A stretch of DNA of 64,000 bases from the NCBI GenBank assembly GCA_049509455.1, contig JBEKZX010000002.1, positions 26,485 to 90,484 of the forward strand, in the 5' to 3' direction. The notes beneath the pieces are model-generated. The model did no database searches. It was not told the origin of the DNA and worked only from the letters and a program-made list of their open reading frames with translations. The position numbers were made by a program, and so were the translations under genes. Within the stretch, counting starts at the first letter, position 1. Every line of letters begins with the position of its first letter. Of this stretch, positions 11,097 to 21,163 are shown piece after piece. Source of the stretch: Conexivisphaerales archaeon (GTDB lineage: Archaea > Thermoproteota > Nitrososphaeria > Conexivisphaerales > DTJL01).

Positions 11097-14000
11097 TCAA
11101 ACATAGTCCGCAATGGAAGTTTGCTTCTTTGATTCGGAGAGAAGTTGCAGGTTCTCTAGTGTCAGAGCGACCTTGTCTTTAATCGGTTGGGGGATTTTAT
11201 GCGACCTTGTGAGTTCGTTAGCTAACAGCGCGTACTTCTCAACCGCGGCCATTGTAACGGTCGGAAGGAGCTCCCTTCCACAGGTCAGACAGTTTCCTTT
11301 GAGTGGTGGACGGCGGTATGCCTCTCCACATCCCTTGCAACGGAACTTCTGAGTAGAGTACGCTTCCAGATTCTTGATTATTTCTTTGACAAGGTAGTTG
11401 TTCAGCAGGGATGAGACGAGGGCATCAACGTCGACTGCCTGGATTCTGCTTGCAACGGCTATCTGTTTGTTCACTTTGTCGGGCATCGGTCCTGGAGCGG
11501 CGTATTGGGACCATGGCTGACGTGGAACTATGTTTGATGACCAGTGTGTGTACTCGTAGATTAGCTCTGGAGCCTCTGAATTATCGCTTCGCGAAGCGGA
11601 TGAGAACATGCGTTCGAATAATTGGGAGGAAACCTTCTCACTAGCCTTGATGAAGAACTCTTGAGGATATGAGCTCAAAGTGTCTAGAAGTGTGGGAGTC
11701 CTAGTCGTCGTTGACTGTAAGATGATTGGTTCTATCATTGTGGGTGTGTCCAGCAGCCCTTCCAGCTGGTCCGGGCAAAGCCTTGGGGAGTAATTCAGTA
11801 GGACATCCAAAAGCAGCGTCAGCGAGTCAGCGTCGCCTCCACAGTCTCGATGCTTGGCAGCATGCCACATGGGATGGGCAAAACAAACTCGTGCGTTTGC
11901 AAAGCCTATGATGCGACCCACTACTCCGATAGAGGCTTTGGGAGATATCCCGACCACAAGAGCGCCCAGAAGGTCGTCCTGTTTGTGGATGTCGTAAAAC
12001 GCTTCGGTCTTAAAGAATCGTGTCAAGAGATCGTCCAAATAGGCGGCAAGTCTCTTGAGGTGATCGCCACATTCTTCGGGCAGGATTATGTCCTGAGGCT
12101 TGAGCTCCAAGGTTTGCTCTTCGGATTCCAAAGGTCTGCCGTATCGATCTACGACGTAACCGAGATTTTGAAGCGTTTTGATGTCCGTGTGGAGCTGGGA
12201 GGGTTTGAAGTGTGTCAGAGGAGCGTTGATAGTATCGTACCTTATTGTTCCATCCTTGAAGCTCGTCAGGCTATGGCGTTGTCTCATGATGCCTTTTTCA
12301 AGTCGCTCTGGTGTCAATGAGCGGTTCGCGAGTCTGACTACGCCCTTCAGAGGTGGATAGGGCTGAAGGCCTGTGCTAGCTGAAGCGGCACGAAGGATAT
12401 CCAGTACCCTTGGGACCGCAGTAGTATAAGGCAACGTGACGCTTCCGCAGTCCGGACATTTCTCGGCGCGGCTCTCCTTTCGGCATGAAGTGCAGAAATA
12501 TAGTCTAGACGTAGGGGATTCACAGAAGGGACAAGAGTTGTATGGGGAAGGAGAACCACAAGATGGGCATATCTGCATGAGAAGGTCAACTGTTGAAGGA
12601 GAGTGTGAAAACTGGAGGAGATCCCGAGACGGTCCAACTTTCGACCCCACCGGAAACAATACATGGATTGGAGGTCTCATCTTGCGCTCGTTTGCCAACT
12701 CTATCCTGCGCAGTGCCACCCCAACATATGTTGAGGACTTCTTCCTGATCTCGAGGCCAGAAAGGAACTTGAGCAGAGTCAACGTATCCGAATAGTTGGT
12801 TCCGAGAGGGATGGTCTTCTCCGGGGCTAGTGTTAGATAGGCTGATTCCGCGTCGTCCCCGGAGACGACGAGGAGGGAACCCGAGACTTTATGTGGGATG
12901 CCGATTGTCTCTAGGATTCGCTTGATTTGTGAAGAATTCAAGAAGGCGAGCGTCTTAGGGCGATATTCATCGTTTTGATAGTCGACAATGTTATCCCTGA
13001 GCGAAAATATGTCTTTTATGGCGAGCAAGTCCCAGAAGAACGTATAATGTGGATGGAGCGGGATTGCGAGCGCGTTGCAGAGTTGTAAGGACTCGAGAAG
13101 GGTGGGTGTGGTAGAAATGGGATTAGCTAATATCGTTTGAAGCCTATTGATGTCGATGGTGGCTAGGGCCGACAGCTGTTCGAGGGTAAGGTGTCTCTGT
13201 TCTCCTCCGCTTTGGACATCTGTGATCCACCATTCTTCGACGTAGCCGGAAGGATCTAGTTTTAAGCCAGAAGATAGAAACTCGCTCGGCGAGGTTAGGA
13301 TGTCTCCGAGATGAAGAATGCAGTCCAGGCTATCCTTGAGGGCTCGTGCCTCATCGGCGCTTTCAATCCTGCGCGTGTCACCGTTGTGAAGGCGAACTAT
13401 AGGAGGTTCGATTGAATCGACCATAGCTACCGAACCCGTCCGCCCCAAGATGCTGATCTTGATCTGTGTCCCAGTGGTTATTGGGAAGTCTAGGAGCTCG
13501 AGGACGGCGGGGTGGAAGCCAAAGCAACCAAATCCGGTATCTTGGGCTCTACCGTACCGCAGCCTGAAGCTCCCTTGCTTGTCCGGCAACGACAAGACCG
13601 GCCTGCCTGGCTTGGCGTCCAGAATGTATGATTGTGGGTCTTCTGGTTTACGTATCTTGGTACCGCCCTCTAGACTCGAGAGCCAATCCCATTCTTGGAT
13701 TTGCAACTCCCTAGCAAGATCGAGTAGACGGGAAGATCTGCCAATAACTCCATCGACTAGAACATGCAGGGCCCCTCCTCTCACTCGATCCTCCTTGATT
13801 CTGCTTAGACCTCGGTTGACGAGGACTTCGGTGCCTGAGGTTCCGTAGCCGTCCACTTCGACTGGGATGTTATGGAGAACGGATTGCAAGTCGGCTTCGC
13901 TAACTTTGAATTGAAATGGACCGGTTTCTCTCTGGCATAGGCGCAACTCCTCCAAGAATCGTGCGGTTTCATTCTCACCCGTTGAGTCGATGTGATATTT

Positions 14001-14564
14001 ATCGAGACCGATGATGAGTCGAACCCTGTCAACAACTAGGAGCATAAACGCGGCTTGGAGAGGCGAGATAATGCCGGAAATCTGGCCGAACACTACTGCA
14101 GGATAGGATGTGCCATCGCCGTTCTTCTTAATGACGACCTTTGTGATGTTCTCAACAGGAATGGCCAAAGCACATGATGTCACAAGAGCCAACGCCGCTT
14201 TCAGGACAGAATTAAGCGTTTCTTCCTTTTCGAAGAAGCCGAAATGGCCTAACGCTATGTCTTCAGCTATCTTGAGAGCCGTTTTGGCCACTGGGTCCTT
14301 GGAATCATAGGAAGTGAGCCTTTCTGAGATGCCACTAATGCCAGTAATCATCTCTAGCCGGTCGGCTATATCACATACCGCATGTGATTGTGGTTCCCTA
14401 TCCAAGTCGATTCCCTTTGACATTGCAGTAGTTGCGCACTCGAAGGCTTTGACGTAGGAGTCTCCAATGTTCCGAAGGTAAGTGATTTGAGACGGTTCGA
14501 CTACGCGCTCAAGGATTCTCTTGATGGTGTTTCTGGGATCGGTCCTGTCCTTGTCTAGGCTCAA
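11097..14564 (-). CDS. polC: DNA polymerase D large subunit DP2, highly diverged, with predicted catalytic Asp lost
   Basis: LRYGR, GRIIGF, NAPLTHF, HAAKHRDCGGDAD, zinc fingers, C-terminal FRCxxC...RRPPLxGxCxxCG, and PIP-like QTSIADYV. Confidence 0.92.
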   Translation of the reverse strand: MSLDKDRTDPRNTIKRILERVVEPSQITYLRNIGDSYVKAFECATTAMSKGIDLDREPQSHAVCDIADRLEMITGISGISERLTSYDSKDPVAKTALKIAEDIALGHFGFFEKEETLNSVLKAALALVTSCALAIPVENITKVVIKKNGDGTSYPAVVFGQISGIISPLQAAFMLLVVDRVRLIIGLDKYHIDSTGENETARFLEELRLCQRETGPFQFKVSEADLQSVLHNIPVEVDGYGTSGTEVLVNRGLSRIKEDRVRGGALHVLVDGVIGRSSRLLDLARELQIQEWDWLSSLEGGTKIRKPEDPQSYILDAKPGRPVLSLPDKQGSFRLRYGRAQDTGFGCFGFHPAVLELLDFPITTGTQIKISILGRTGSVAMVDSIEPPIVRLHNGDTRRIESADEARALKDSLDCILHLGDILTSPSEFLSSGLKLDPSGYVEEWWITDVQSGGEQRHLTLEQLSALATIDINRLQTILANPISTTPTLLESLQLCNALAIPLHPHYTFFWDLLAIKDIFSLRDNIVDYQNDEYRPKTLAFLNSSQIKRILETIGIPHKVSGSLLVVSGDDAESAYLTLAPEKTIPLGTNYSDTLTLLKFLSGLEIRKKSSTYVGVALRRIELANERKMRPPIHVLFPVGSKVGPSRDLLQFSHSPSTVDLLMQICPSCGSPSPYNSCPFCESPTSRLYFCTSCRKESRAEKCPDCGSVTLPYTTAVPRVLDILRAASASTGLQPYPPLKGVVRLANRSLTPERLEKGIMRQRHSLTSFKDGTIRYDTINAPLTHFKPSQLHTDIKTLQNLGYVVDRYGRPLESEEQTLELKPQDIILPEECGDHLKRLAAYLDDLLTRFFKTEAFYDIHKQDDLLGALVVGISPKASIGVVGRIIGFANARVCFAHPMWHAAKHRDCGGDADSLTLLLDVLLNYSPRLCPDQLEGLLDTPTMIEPIILQSTTTRTPTLLDTLSSYPQEFFIKASEKVSSQLFERMFSSASRSDNSEAPELIYEYTHWSSNIVPRQPWSQYAAPGPMPDKVNKQIAVASRIQAVDVDALVSSLLNNYLVKEIIKNLEAYSTQKFRCKGCGEAYRRPPLKGNCLTCGRELLPTVTMAAVEKYALLANELTRSHKIPQPIKDKVALTLENLQLLSESKKQTSIADYV

Positions 14565-17399: not shown

Positions 17400-17810
17400 T
17401 GTTGGGAGTAAGCGGCTGCACGGGTTCCAGTGGACGCACTGGGGTGGCGGTGGTCGGTTAACAAACTTAAAGGTGTAGATTGGGTCCACTGGAAACAATG
17501 GGGTTCAAAGCTGGCTCCTTTTGGTTGCGATACAAGTGTATGTTAACAAATAGGCTACTATCTATGATTGTCGTTCAGGTTGATGAGGGGCACCCGTAGA
17601 TCGCCAGTGGAGACCCCTTATAGAATCTGGAATATTGACTATTGGCGTCGAAGTAGTCTAGACTAGATTTAACTGTCTTATCAGTCAACTAGTGTTAACA
17701 TGATTGTATATATGCTTCTTGGGGCATCAAATAGCGGTATATTTTCCATCTTCCCGTTTATCATCTTTAACTTATATATTTTCCAGTGGAAGTAATGGGG
17801 GGAGGGGCTC
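17400..17810. promoter_or_regulatory. Chromosomal replication origin (oriC) with ORB elements
   Basis: ORB-like TCCA(G/C)TGGA...GGGG copies at about 17424-17445 (+), 17484-17505 (+), 17591-17612 (-, weaker) and 17780-17801 (+), with AT-rich stretches, directly upstream of cdc6. Confidence 0.85.
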
Positions 17811-19013
17811 TTGTCAAACCCATCAAGCGATCCATTAAATGACATATTCGATAGGGCGATTAACGGGGAAAGTCTCTTCCTAAACAGAAATGCCCTCAGG
17901 AACGAATTCATCCCTAACCAAATCCACTTCAGAGACGAACAGATCAAGAATGTGGGCCAAATATTATCCCCCGCTCTCACTGGTCACAAACCTTCTAGTC
18001 TGTTAATTTACGGCAAAACCGGCACAGGGAAGACCGTAGTCGTAAGATATGTAATCAACCGCCTAGTCGAGAGAAGCAAAACAATGGACACAAACATCCG
18101 AACGGCCTATGTGAATACACGCGTAGCTTCAACCGAGTATCGAATTCTGTCTGAAGTTGCGATTGAGCTGGGAGTAGCTTTACCATTTACCGGACTGTCT
18201 CTCAGTGAAGCATTCAATAGAATAACTAGCAACATGAGAGAACACTCGCTCAAAACCATCTTCGTTCTTGACGAGATCGATTTTCTGGTCAAATCGTCAG
18301 GCGACAACCTCCTTTACGAATTCACTAGAGCCAACGAAAATTTGACCAACAACGCTTTCATCGCGTTAGTGGGGATATCCAACGACCTCAAATTCAAAGA
18401 GACACTCGATCCGAGGGTCCTTAGCAGCCTAAACGAAGAAGAAATAGTGTTCTCTCCCTACTCAGTAGACGAACTAAGGGCCATCTTGCGCGAACGGATT
18501 GAGGTAGCTTTTGTCCCAGGGAAAGTAAGCGAAGCCGCAGTCAACCTGTGCGCAGGCATGGGGGCCGCAGAGCATGGAGACGCGAGACGCGCCGTCGACC
18601 TCCTTCGAGTAGCTGGAGAGCTTGCTGAAAGAGAAGGCGCGCAAACGGTTGAGGACTCCCATGTAAGAGAAGCCTCGAAGAGCATCGAAAGAGACCGAGT
18701 GCTTGAAGCAATCCAGTCATTACCCATTCATGGCAAATTGACACTCCTAGCCGTCTCATCCTTCAAAGAAGCCGAGAACACAGGCCATATATACGCCAAA
18801 TACATTGAGGTCACCAAACAACTTGGGCTCGAACCCTTGACGCAGAGAAGGGTAAGCGGCCTCCTAAGTGAACTTGATCTCTTGGGACTTGTTTCGGCTC
18901 CAGTCGTTAGCAAGGGCAGGATGGGCCGATCCAAGAAGGTCAGGCTGGAAATACCACAACAGGTCGTCGAAGCCTCTCTCAAGGACGATGAAACCGTCAA
19001 AACGCTTCTCTAG
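17811..19013 (+). CDS. cdc6: Orc1/Cdc6 replication initiator
   Basis: Walker A GKTGTGKT, Walker B LDEID, DPRVLSSL, HGDARRAVDLLR, and C-terminal wHTH (SELDLLGLV...GRMGR). Confidence 0.96.
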   Translation: MSNPSSDPLNDIFDRAINGESLFLNRNALRNEFIPNQIHFRDEQIKNVGQILSPALTGHKPSSLLIYGKTGTGKTVVVRYVINRLVERSKTMDTNIRTAYVNTRVASTEYRILSEVAIELGVALPFTGLSLSEAFNRITSNMREHSLKTIFVLDEIDFLVKSSGDNLLYEFTRANENLTNNAFIALVGISNDLKFKETLDPRVLSSLNEEEIVFSPYSVDELRAILRERIEVAFVPGKVSEAAVNLCAGMGAAEHGDARRAVDLLRVAGELAEREGAQTVEDSHVREASKSIERDRVLEAIQSLPIHGKLTLLAVSSFKEAENTGHIYAKYIEVTKQLGLEPLTQRRVSGLLSELDLLGLVSAPVVSKGRMGRSKKVRLEIPQQVVEASLKDDETVKTLL

Positions 19014-19015
19014 GC

Positions 19016-20449
19016 TCAAGCGCGCCACAAGACATCAAAAGTTGATAGGTCTACTAGCGCCGCTTTTCCTTGGCTTCGCACAGCAGATTTCGTACCGGCA
19101 ATCCAAGACGGAGTAGAGAGCAACAGCGTACCTCTGTAAACTTCTTCATCAGGTATACCAACATGGCCACAATGCATTATGTCAGGTATAGGATCTATAA
19201 TCAGCAGGTCATCCTTCTCTGGAGCCAACAGCGTCAAGCCACCATACGTTGGAGCCACATGCCTAGCTCTGAGCAAAGCGCGCATTCCCGTAGAGGGTCG
19301 GCTCACGGAGACAGACTGTAGCTGCCTGAACACTTCATCTAGACTCTGCCCATGATAGAGGAGTACATTCACGCCATCAAGTCTTACCATGGAGGGGTTA
19401 CCCAACATGACGACATTTTTCATTTCATAAAGTCTCTTGGCGTACTTCCTTATGATTGCAGGCTGGGGCAAAGCAATTCTAGTAGCATCCGTGTCTCCTG
19501 GTGTGAGGAAAATCTTCATCGGCCTCCTTATGTTTTCAAGATATCCTGCGAGCACATCATAGGAAGACCTAACGTCATGCTCACTCAGGCGTCCATCGCC
19601 TGCCAACGGATTTTCGATAAGATCACCATTCAAGACCAGATATCCGATCCTAGACACCACTTCAAGTTCACCTAGGTCTCCATTAATCCAGTCAATCATC
19701 TTCTGAAACGAAGTCTCGTCAAAGTCTGGCGACCCCACATGAAGGTCTGACAAGAACATAGCATAGATTTTTTTATCGGCCGTCCTCTTGGCCCTCTCGG
19801 GCACATCTAGATGGTAGATATTCTTAGCATAATACCCTCTAGGTTGCGACTCAACTTCCACCAAAACGAACTCATCAATGAGAACTTCGTCCATCTTGCG
19901 TATCGCGTCGCCTGTACACATCAGTCGAAGGTACCCGCTATCGTCCTCCAGCGTTAAAGACATATAATCACTTGAAATCTTTTTAGACGCTACAAGTCCA
20001 ACCACTTTCGCTAGGACTTTTCTACCTGAGAGCGGGGTCTTAATGGCATTCAGCTTCTCAATCTGGAAGAAATCTGGCCGACCCCTGATTAGCGAAGACA
20101 TCCTCTCGAGCCTGTTCCTAAACATTAGAACATATCCCGATGTATCAGTAGTCGGGCTGATGGCGCTCGTTGGATCAGAAAGCACTTCGAAATCTAGAAC
20201 GAGCTCCCTTTCCGCGTCCTCCAGGTCATTTCTAGAATGCAAAAACGGTTTGATATCCTTGGAGCCTATGACGAAGTGTTTTCCACGCTGTTTGGCCTTC
20301 GTTTTCATAACGGCCTCAAGAACGCGAAGTACCGAATCCGGCTCTCCTTCCTGATCGAGGAGCTCCCGTACCGCATCCAATTCCACTTGGTAGCCCTGTT
20401 CTAACATCCTCCTTACTATCATGACTTCGTCGTCCTTTCGGCTTGCCAT
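19016..20449 (-). CDS. DNA polymerase D small subunit DP1, with degenerate exonuclease motifs
   Basis: OB fold (LEDDSG), SDLHVGS, NGDL, ALPQP, YHG, RHVAPTYGG, PDIMHCGHV; start refined to the ATG at 20449. Confidence 0.9.
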   Translation of the reverse strand: MASRKDDEVMIVRRMLEQGYQVELDAVRELLDQEGEPDSVLRVLEAVMKTKAKQRGKHFVIGSKDIKPFLHSRNDLEDAERELVLDFEVLSDPTSAISPTTDTSGYVLMFRNRLERMSSLIRGRPDFFQIEKLNAIKTPLSGRKVLAKVVGLVASKKISSDYMSLTLEDDSGYLRLMCTGDAIRKMDEVLIDEFVLVEVESQPRGYYAKNIYHLDVPERAKRTADKKIYAMFLSDLHVGSPDFDETSFQKMIDWINGDLGELEVVSRIGYLVLNGDLIENPLAGDGRLSEHDVRSSYDVLAGYLENIRRPMKIFLTPGDTDATRIALPQPAIIRKYAKRLYEMKNVVMLGNPSMVRLDGVNVLLYHGQSLDEVFRQLQSVSVSRPSTGMRALLRARHVAPTYGGLTLLAPEKDDLLIIDPIPDIMHCGHVGIPDEEVYRGTLLLSTPSWIAGTKSAVRSQGKAALVDLSTFDVLWRA

Positions 20450-20500
20450 CGGATTCGCGTTACTACTGTTCTGGAGGCGCCCTATTTTACGATTATATTC

Positions 20501-21163
20501 ATGCATCTGCTAGGGTGGACTCGGTTGCCATCAAAACCAGACGCCGTTGCCGCTCTCATACTTGCGGGCGGTCTTTCTTCCCGTATGGGTCAGGAGAAAG
20601 CCACGCTAATGATCAAATCTAGACCATTGATTAGTTGGGCTTACGACGCCGCAAATAGATTCACCAATCATATCTACATATCATCTCACGATGAAAGCAT
20701 GACTAACCGTTTCCGACCACTGTTACCAGCCGATGTGGTTTTCATAGCCGATCTATATGACGGCCCACGCTCGGTGCTTCTGGCCTTGCTCTCATCCTTT
20801 CAGTCTATCAAGGAAGAATACATAATTGTATTTCCTGTAGACTCACCCCTCATAAGGCCTAATCTGATGGCCGAAATGGTTTCCAAATCAAAGGAGTTTG
20901 ACCTCGTAATACCCGTCTGGCCAGACGGCAAGCTCGAAGCGATACATGCGGTCTATGACAGGGAAGCCACCTTACCGGTCATTAGAGACCTGTGGCACAG
21001 CAGGACGTTGGAGCTCTGGCAGATAGCTAAGCATGCCAAGAAAACACTATTCATATCCACAGAACGCCTTGCTGAACTGGATCCAGGCCTCGTCTCGCTT
21101 CTTGATGCTGACACACCCGATGAATTCGAAACTCTCAAATCAGTTGCAGCCAACTACATGTAA
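20501..21163 (+). CDS. mobA: MobA-like molybdenum cofactor guanylyltransferase / NTP transferase
   Basis: LILAGGLSSRMGQEKA, PVDSP, EAIHAVY, DADTPDE. Confidence 0.8.
   Translation: MHLLGWTRLPSKPDAVAALILAGGLSSRMGQEKATLMIKSRPLISWAYDAANRFTNHIYISSHDESMTNRFRPLLPADVVFIADLYDGPRSVLLALLSSFQSIKEEYIIVFPVDSPLIRPNLMAEMVSKSKEFDLVIPVWPDGKLEAIHAVYDREATLPVIRDLWHSRTLELWQIAKHAKKTLFISTERLAELDPGLVSLLDADTPDEFETLKSVAANYM

Follow-up and report, generated by a model that had tools for sequence, protein, structure and literature searches.

Can an archaeal family-D DNA polymerase (PolD) whose large subunit has lost a catalytic aspartate still synthesize DNA and, if it cannot, what keeps its genes in the genome? These questions are raised by a 64,000-nucleotide stretch of DNA (the window) from a Conexivisphaerales archaeon (assembly GCA_049509455.1, contig JBEKZX010000002.1, positions 26,485 to 90,484 of the forward strand), which carries the genes of both PolD subunits, DP2 (large) and DP1 (small). 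Most archaea are considered to depend on PolD as their essential replicase. The case bears on why some lineages could do without it, and on how eukaryotes came to retain no more of it than the B-subunit, which is an inactivated DP1, and the C-terminal domain (CTD) of DP2. An earlier note on this DNA had proposed that DP2 is a pseudo-polymerase kept as a replisome scaffold. This proposal was supported in silico by the loss of residues known from experiments to be essential, by purifying selection on a single-copy gene, by the predicted fold, by an order-wide series of reduced forms and by the presence of PolB1; each refuting condition named in that note that is open to analysis in silico turned out in its favour. 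We consider it likely that the DP1-DP2 complex is a non-catalytic replisome scaffold, which has lost both the polymerase and the 3'-5' exonuclease activity and is maintained by purifying selection.

The acidic motif of DP2

11097..14564, minus strand: gene of the PolD large subunit DP2, 1155 amino acids (aa), TTG start, full length
11826..11864, minus strand: acidic (a-) motif, translation HAAKHRDCGGDAD; G909 corresponds to D964 of Thermococcus sp. 9degN and D956 of Pyrococcus abyssi, H905 to 9degN R960

By homology and orthology the open reading frame (ORF) encodes a full-length DP2. The unbroken 1155-aa chain carries all three Pfam domains of DP2 (N-terminal, 191 bits; central, 304 bits; catalytic, 292 bits), PF03833, PF24844 and PF24846 each matching at E<1e-56. 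The TIGR00354 equivalog model was passed with a score of 840 (cut-off 702), and NF003103 gave 951, under its cut-off of 1269. The AlphaFold2 model (pLDDT 86.4, pTM 0.85) superposed in Foldseek on P. abyssi DP2 (8ppt_B) with a TM-score of 0.91, a root-mean-square deviation of 3.5 Å and 31% identity. The two-barrel fold with the clamp and Zn modules is retained in this model.

The reading of the motif on the minus strand as HAAKHRDCGGDAD was confirmed. It is aligned by phmmer to HAAKRRNCDGDED of P. abyssi, and Gly909 therefore occupies the position of P. abyssi D956, that is, of 9degN D964. D956 and D958 (9degN D964 and D966) are the two aspartates whose alanine mutants lack polymerase activity (PMC4996933; PMC7708050), therefore the designation of the replaced residue as the first essential Asp of DGD was correct. 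D964A abolishes the activity of 9degN PolD, and the equivalent mutation does the same in P. horikoshii (PMC7708050, PMC4996933). The window DP2 reads DCGGD where the a-motif requires N/DxDGD with both catalytic aspartates.

Protein searches returned a discrete clade of DP2 sequences, 54-74% identical over the searched region and derived from independent JGI, ENA and NCBI assemblies; the Asp is absent from all of them. The next-best matches were at most 42% identical over that region, and 109 of 109 keep CDGDxD. In the alignment of orthologs all 13 clade members carry G or S at the D964 site, and 103/103 canonical DP2 carry D. The site of 9degN R960, which is R in canonical DP2, is H, Y or F in the clade (R in one member).

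Other active-site and DNA-contact elements of DP2

The comparison was extended to the three active-site motifs of Zatopek et al. (PMC7708050) and to the DNA-contact elements of Raia et al. (PMC6355029).

11931..11951, minus strand: selectivity (s-) motif GISPKAS, canonical invariant GLAPHTS; steric-gate His is Lys
13440..13460, minus strand: basic (b-) motif KISILGR; the Lys contacting the primer 3'-phosphate (9degN K398) is R375, and the canonical Asp/Glu at +2 is Ser
14058..14087, minus strand: nucleic-acid-binding loop of the KH-like domain, GQISGIISPL (residues 160-169), in place of AGPxRSAGGT (P. abyssi G151/G152)
12693..12716, minus strand: loop connecting the double-psi beta-barrels (DPBB), ALRRIELA, canonical RxGRPxKA; minor-groove Lys (P. 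abyssi K661) is Leu (PMC6355029)

The PHT core of the s-motif (GLAPHTS) has been described as invariant in all PolD, and both H931R and H931Y abolish 9degN activity (PMC7708050). The window has PKA instead, and the clade follows the pattern P[K/E/R][A/S/T], with K, E or R in place of the steric-gate His. Lysine occupies the K398 site in 103 of 103 canonical DP2; the window DP2 has Arg, and across the clade the residue is R, H, F or K. In 9degN the K398A mutation strongly reduces primer extension (PMC7708050). The change of R395 to Ile in the b-motif was rejected as a clade-specific loss because Ile also occurs in canonical thaumarchaeal DP2.

The KH-like loop, to which a role in nucleic-acid binding has been assigned (PMC6355029), is variable across the clade. 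Residues 135-139 read IPVEN against the canonical APxxG. Since both AGPxRSAGGT and APxxG are invariant in the 103 canonical DP2, the drift of N-terminal motifs described in the earlier note is real. At the K661 site the clade has L, I, V or G instead of Lys. Damage to the active site is broader than the earlier note had seen, and includes the steric gate, the primer Lys, the KH loop and the minor-groove Lys.

As reference, 229 positions with at least 97% invariance in the 103 canonical DP2 were used. Thirty of the 229 are missing from every one of the 13 clade members, and held-out canonical groups matched for internal diversity, which served as controls, lose 0-1; the losses exceed what chance would give. 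Within a trio of DP2 sequences that are 91-93% identical the steric-gate site alternates between K and E and the Lys site of the b-motif between R and H: the lost catalytic positions float rather than being merely substituted.

The exonuclease site of DP1

19016..20506, minus strand: gene of the PolD small subunit DP1, 496 aa, with a degenerate Mre11-like exonuclease site
19481..19504, minus strand: DP1 motif III TPGDTDAT (PGDTDA, canonical PGNHDA); metal ligand N450 is Asp, essential H451 is Thr
19154..19174, minus strand: DP1 motif V HCGHVGI (GHVG, canonical GHVH); metal ligand H562 is Gly

The DP1 gene lies 4.4 kb from the DP2 gene. Judged by the residue roles established for DP1 (PMC4996933, PMC10721889), the exonuclease set D360, H362, D404, N450, H497, H560 and H562 plus the catalytic H451 is incomplete in the window protein, which has lost the essential His and two metal ligands. 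Ten clade DP1 sequences have T, M, A or S at the H451 site, D or E at the N450 site, G at the H562 site and H, R or C at that of the motif I His (H362). In canonical thaumarchaeal DP1 the motifs SDLH, GD, PGNHD, HG and GHVH are preserved.

The order was sampled with 36 species genomes from four families, including one closed 1.6-Mb genome. DP1 was recovered from 29 of the 36, every recovered DP1 lacks the Asn-His pair of GNHD, and most share the change of N to E. These shared changes speak for an inactivation that may date back to the root of the order or close to it.

Selection and copy number

Ratios of nonsynonymous to synonymous substitution (dN/dS) were calculated by the Nei-Gojobori method. 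Because dS was saturated between the window and its relatives, only close pairs with unsaturated dS (0.03-0.73) were used. For the whole DP2 gene dN/dS was 0.09-0.13, and for single domains 0.02-0.17, indicating purifying selection in every domain. The catalytic domain (0.09-0.17) is constrained like the rest of the gene, and the CTD gave the lowest values (0.02-0.08). For the neighbouring gene PcrB (GGGP-synthase) the same pairs gave 0.08-0.14. Compared with canonical groups of the same overall divergence, the clade shows lower conservation of the KH/N-terminal domain (0.58 vs 0.67) and higher conservation of the CTD (0.74 vs 0.65).

A sequence error, a redundant copy or a gene drifting neutrally towards deletion would also explain a missing Asp. 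The congeneric genome G013 could be cited in favour of such an explanation, as its DP2 is frameshifted close to residue 992 and it contains a stray DP2 piece of about 30 aa, and so could the heavy decay of the gene in other families of the order. However, the same substitutions occur in at least 13 sequences from independent assemblies. The Gly909 codon (11838-11840) is GGA, two changes from GAC/GAT, and nine independent assemblies have GGA, GGG or GGT there. Sequencing error at the motif was therefore rejected; GAC does not occur at the site, where Gly or Ser is fixed throughout the clade. The clade ORFs are intact at 1151-1155 aa. A spare copy beside an intact DP2 was likewise rejected, since the own genome (95.5% complete) contains a single DP2 match and no canonical DP2 was found among the 36 genomes of the order. 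Neutral decay, finally, was rejected on a dN/dS of about 0.1, equal to that of the housekeeping neighbour PcrB. We regard an artefact or a decaying pseudogene as highly improbable, and these observations effectively refute it.

In G013 the split DP2 gene is located at G013:C4:349128-352554. The frameshift may be a long-read assembly error, since an intact version of 1152 aa is found on an ENA contig. The stray fragment (L081:812-1120), about 36 kb upstream of that DP2, copies the neighbourhood of the a-motif (GDANSLTLLLDVMLNYSPKLCP).

A graded series of DP2 forms in the order

DP2-like ORFs were compared across the order, with the following result (length; identity to the window DP2; acidic loop):

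Own genus: 1155 aa; 60-66%; CGGD
Genus g2, same family: 1109 aa; about 30%; NCRGRSD
Genus g3, same family: 1075 aa; 26-32%; RCSGVAD
Genus g4, same family: 1071 aa; 25-28%; acidic motif absent
Two other families: about 690-850 aa; low identity; acidic loop erased

The Pfam catalytic-domain score declines along this series from 292 over 225, 217, 199, 74 and 32 bits to nothing, and the ORFs of the two other families match only the Zn-finger segment, a vestige of a barrel and the CTD. The gene order PcrB-DP2-SHMT is kept throughout the family of the window; PcrB flanks the remnants in one of the other families and SHMT in another. These conserved flanks identify the DP2-like ORFs as positional orthologues. 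The window gene is the least-decayed stage of the series; in other families little more of it is left than Zn fingers, CTD and a PCNA-interacting (PIP) box.

In a maximum-likelihood tree canonical DP2 sequences lie on one side of a branch with 100% support. The genus of the window forms a 100% clade with a stem of 0.33 substitutions per site, and the other members of the order sit on branches of 1.2-3.5. A general rate acceleration of the genus was rejected as the source of its substitutions: a stem of 0.33 is moderate and resembles those of canonical clades, and the signal is site-specific and not that of a general long branch.

In the wider class, canonical families match the catalytic domain at E 1e-100 to 1e-140 (G121 and G220, flagged as unpublished, were counted only in the tally of the largest canonical family). 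No catalytic-domain match was found in families f11 (0/8) and f14 (0/4) among sampled genomes of at least 85% completeness. The Nitrosocaldus-like lineage, for which the lack of PolD is known, is probably one of these families; the second, with genomes of 1.8-2.3 Mb, may represent a further separate loss. The suggestion that the window DP2 is an intermediate towards PolD loss was supported by the decay series in its own order, and not by a link to the losses in Crenarchaeota or Nitrosocaldus.

Whether the order holds, in living genomes, successive stages of a switch from PolD to a PolB replicase is in our judgement evenly poised. The stages would be a full-length PolD, point-inactivated but still strongly constrained, in the genus of the window, erasure of the acidic loop in its sister genera and, in the other families, a minimal Zn-CTD-PIP protein bound to a dead DP1.

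Could the altered site still be active?

Several observations weigh against a loss of catalysis. D913 is invariant within the clade, and the D911 site always has D or E. Conservation also extends to RLRYGR in DPBB-1, and two acidic residues, E356 and E945, are clade-invariant and clade-specific, the E356 site being non-acidic in canonical DP2. The constraint on the catalytic domain fits residual or altered catalysis, as does the two-barrel fold of the model. Moreover, inactivity is read here from sequence. Sulfolobus PolB2 (Dpo2) was predicted to be inactive from its degenerate motifs and was later reported to be active. These points could be accommodated by a working polymerase with a remodelled site, in which D907, D911, D913 or E356/E945 bind the metal and which has low activity or a specialised role.

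Other evidence speaks against such an enzyme. Each of the single mutations D964A (in 9degN and P. horikoshii) and H931R is sufficient to abolish activity (PMC7708050), and the window DP2 is altered at both positions. D907, two residues upstream of the lost Asp, was rejected as a compensating residue because it is normal in thaumarchaeal PolD (D in all canonical members) and is N or T in 5/13 clade members, D being found in the rest. The primer Lys site (R/H/F/K) and the steric-gate site (K/E/R) vary even between near-identical sequences, and are therefore unlike parts of a working site. DP1 is degenerate too, and all the aspartates are gone in the sister genera. Taken together, a remodelled active site appears unlikely, and the PolD encoded in the window is probably catalytically inactive.

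Retained modules and the possible function of the complex

12447..12569, minus strand: Zn-I/Zn-II module; C666, C669, C678, C681, C691, C694, C703 and C706 invariant in 52 sequences
11280..11339, minus strand: Zn-III of the C-terminal DP1-binding domain, residues 1076-1095, four Cys retained
11100..11123, minus strand: C-terminal PIP-like box QTSIADYV, of the Qxx[LI]x[DE][FY] type

Both zinc-finger regions and QTSIADYV were found to be retained, as the earlier note had stated: all 12 Zn-finger Cys and Q1148 of QTSIADYV are invariant over clade and canonical sequences. Every DP2-like ORF of the order has a terminus of the type Qxx[LI]x[DE][FY], even where only a remnant of about 700 aa is left. 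In position the box of the window corresponds to the internal PIP of P. abyssi at Q1198, which is required for PCNA-stimulated synthesis (PMC7101311). The genome encodes both the partner DP1 and, as predicted from sequence, a CTD of the DP1-binding type.

Just before Zn-III, the canonical-invariant CTD motif T-H-x3-D-x2-G-N is changed to N-Y-x3-E-x2-x-N/T/S/D throughout the clade (11370-11399 of the window, residues 1056-1065). As this motif is on the DP1-facing side of clamp-1, its change may be coupled to the inactivation of DP1.

In the scaffold proposed here, the Zn-III/CTD region of DP2 would still bind DP1 and the C-terminal PIP box would bind PCNA and perhaps primase. DP1-DP2 could then act as a tether or organiser at the fork, like the non-catalytic half of Pol epsilon with Dpb2 in eukaryotes, and DNA synthesis would be done by the intact, intein-bearing PolB1. 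Contacts of the scaffold with PCNA, primase and helicase are conjectural here; the PIP-PCNA and primase contacts have been demonstrated for PolD of Thermococcales (PMC7101311; PMC8096248).

The inventory of B-family polymerases is in agreement with this division of labour. PolB1 (G000:C35:16203-20003; L074:704-4504, minus strand) has Sulfolobus solfataricus Dpo1 (1S5J) as its best PDB match (E 1e-202) and scored 1033 with NF004417 (cut-off 780). Its Exo I-III and motifs A and B are intact, and motif C (YGD/TDS) is interrupted by an intein; all polymerase and exonuclease motifs are present. PolB1 was found in 34/36 genomes of the order and in 15/15 of the high-quality ones. It is probably the replicase of this genome, and the scaffold proposal predicts that these genomes are replicated by PolB1 alone. 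No Zn-binding CTD is present on the PolB1 of this genome.

The PolB1 intein, of about 390 aa, lies between YGD and TDS, begins with Ser1 and ends with His-Asn, followed by Thr. A second, shorter B-family polymerase is found in most genomes of the order. The genome here also encodes a PolB2/B3-like protein of 753 aa (G000:C122; L002:421-2679, plus strand), closest to PolB3 structures, with an NF004416 match below cut-off, HGIVDS as motif C and an Exo I like DVDID.

17811..19013, plus strand: Orc1/Cdc6 gene, convergent with the DP1 gene and abutting it

The adjacency of Cdc6 and DP1 is conserved in families f1 and f3. A 515-bp gap upstream of Orc1/Cdc6 contains, at 17425-17800 of the window, three direct repeats resembling origin recognition boxes (ORB; TTCCAGTGGA...GGGG) and one inverted pair. 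This repeat-bearing gap next to cdc6 and the dead DP1 is likely a putative oriC.

Such a neighbourhood could indicate that the complex serves in DNA binding or regulation off the moving fork, in origin or initiation control or in repair, by means of its clamp and Zn modules. The abutting Orc1/Cdc6 gene with the putative oriC and its three ORB-like repeats, and retention of the Zn modules and of the clamp fold in the model, would fit this role. However, the order oriC-cdc6-DP1 is ordinary for active PolD in Archaea, and therefore has no particular significance in this case. Both the KH loop that contacts DNA and the K661 equivalent are missing, and what is left in all forms is the PIP box with the DP1-binding CTD, which points to PCNA-linked functions at the fork. 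We think an off-fork role quite unlikely and retain the fork scaffold as the better explanation.

Relation to known systems

Canonical PolD (P. abyssi, Thermococcus sp. 9degN; PDB 6T8H, 8PPT) resembles that of the window in its three-domain architecture, two-barrel fold, Zn-I/II/III, DP1-binding CTD, PIP-like box and in the adjacency of DP1 and Orc1/Cdc6. It differs in possessing the catalytic residues of the a-, b- and s-motifs, the GG loop of the KH domain and the K661 equivalent, all missing from the window DP2, and H451, N450 and H562, missing from its DP1.

In eukaryotic replicative polymerases an inactivated B-subunit (the DP1 homologue) sits on a Zn-finger CTD (the DP2-CTD homologue) as a structural or tethering module, and a B-family polymerase carries out synthesis (PMC7544198, PMC7101311). 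The CTD of the AlphaFold2 model weakly matches the CTD-B-subunit complexes of Pol epsilon and Pol alpha (structure-search ranks 12 and 31). Unlike in eukaryotes, the CTD of the window DP2 remains joined to a complete, dead two-barrel core, with no fusion to PolB, and PolB1 has no Zn CTD. The resemblance is functional analogy combined with shared ancestry of parts; it provides no evidence for a placement on the eukaryotic line. The graded reduction in the order leads to the very set of modules retained by eukaryotes. Should the dead complex prove to be an essential fork tether, it would be an archaeal replay of the origin of the eukaryotic B-subunit and polymerase CTD, and a natural system that isolates the non-catalytic function of PolD. 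Such a role becomes directly testable by binding assays and by genetics in a cultured relative.

Crenarchaeota and Nitrosocaldus replicate with PolB1 and without an active PolD, as is proposed here; the lack of DP2 in Nitrosocaldus is cited in PMC7544198. In contrast to these lineages, to whose losses it has no phylogenetic link, the genome of the window keeps both PolD genes under constraint.

An inactive PolD has already been noted. Kazlauskas et al. (2020) described a group (UBA160, UBA164 and one further metagenome-assembled genome) in which DP1 is inactivated, an active DP2 is missing and no PolB bears a CTD, and considered its interpretation premature (PMC7544198, section 20, Figs S15/S16). 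Both UBA160 and UBA164 have been placed in the order Conexivisphaerales, as thermophilic 'Dragon' thaumarchaeota (PMC10640624; bioRxiv 10.1101/2025.10.01.679748). The window and its order share all three features with this group, and the two may represent the same lineage. No reports of inactive PolD beyond that of 2020 were found in the literature. The window DP2 is the least-decayed example of this state: it has its full length and is inactivated by point changes only, compared with remnants of about 700-850 aa in other families of the order. New here are this full-length, point-inactivated and strongly constrained form, in a genus whose close relatives stem from soil-type metagenomes, the estimates of selection, the further lost motifs, the PIP box retained in all forms and the series of graded reduction.

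The two also differ in habitat, the UBA160/UBA164 group being thermophilic and the relatives of the window clade coming from soil-type metagenomes. The Conexivisphaerales families DTJL01, Conexivisphaeraceae and UBA164 comprise aerobic, anaerobic and microaerophilic lifestyles, DTJL01 being aerobic, with COX1 reported for it (PMC10833072), and COX1 is present in the genome of the window as well.

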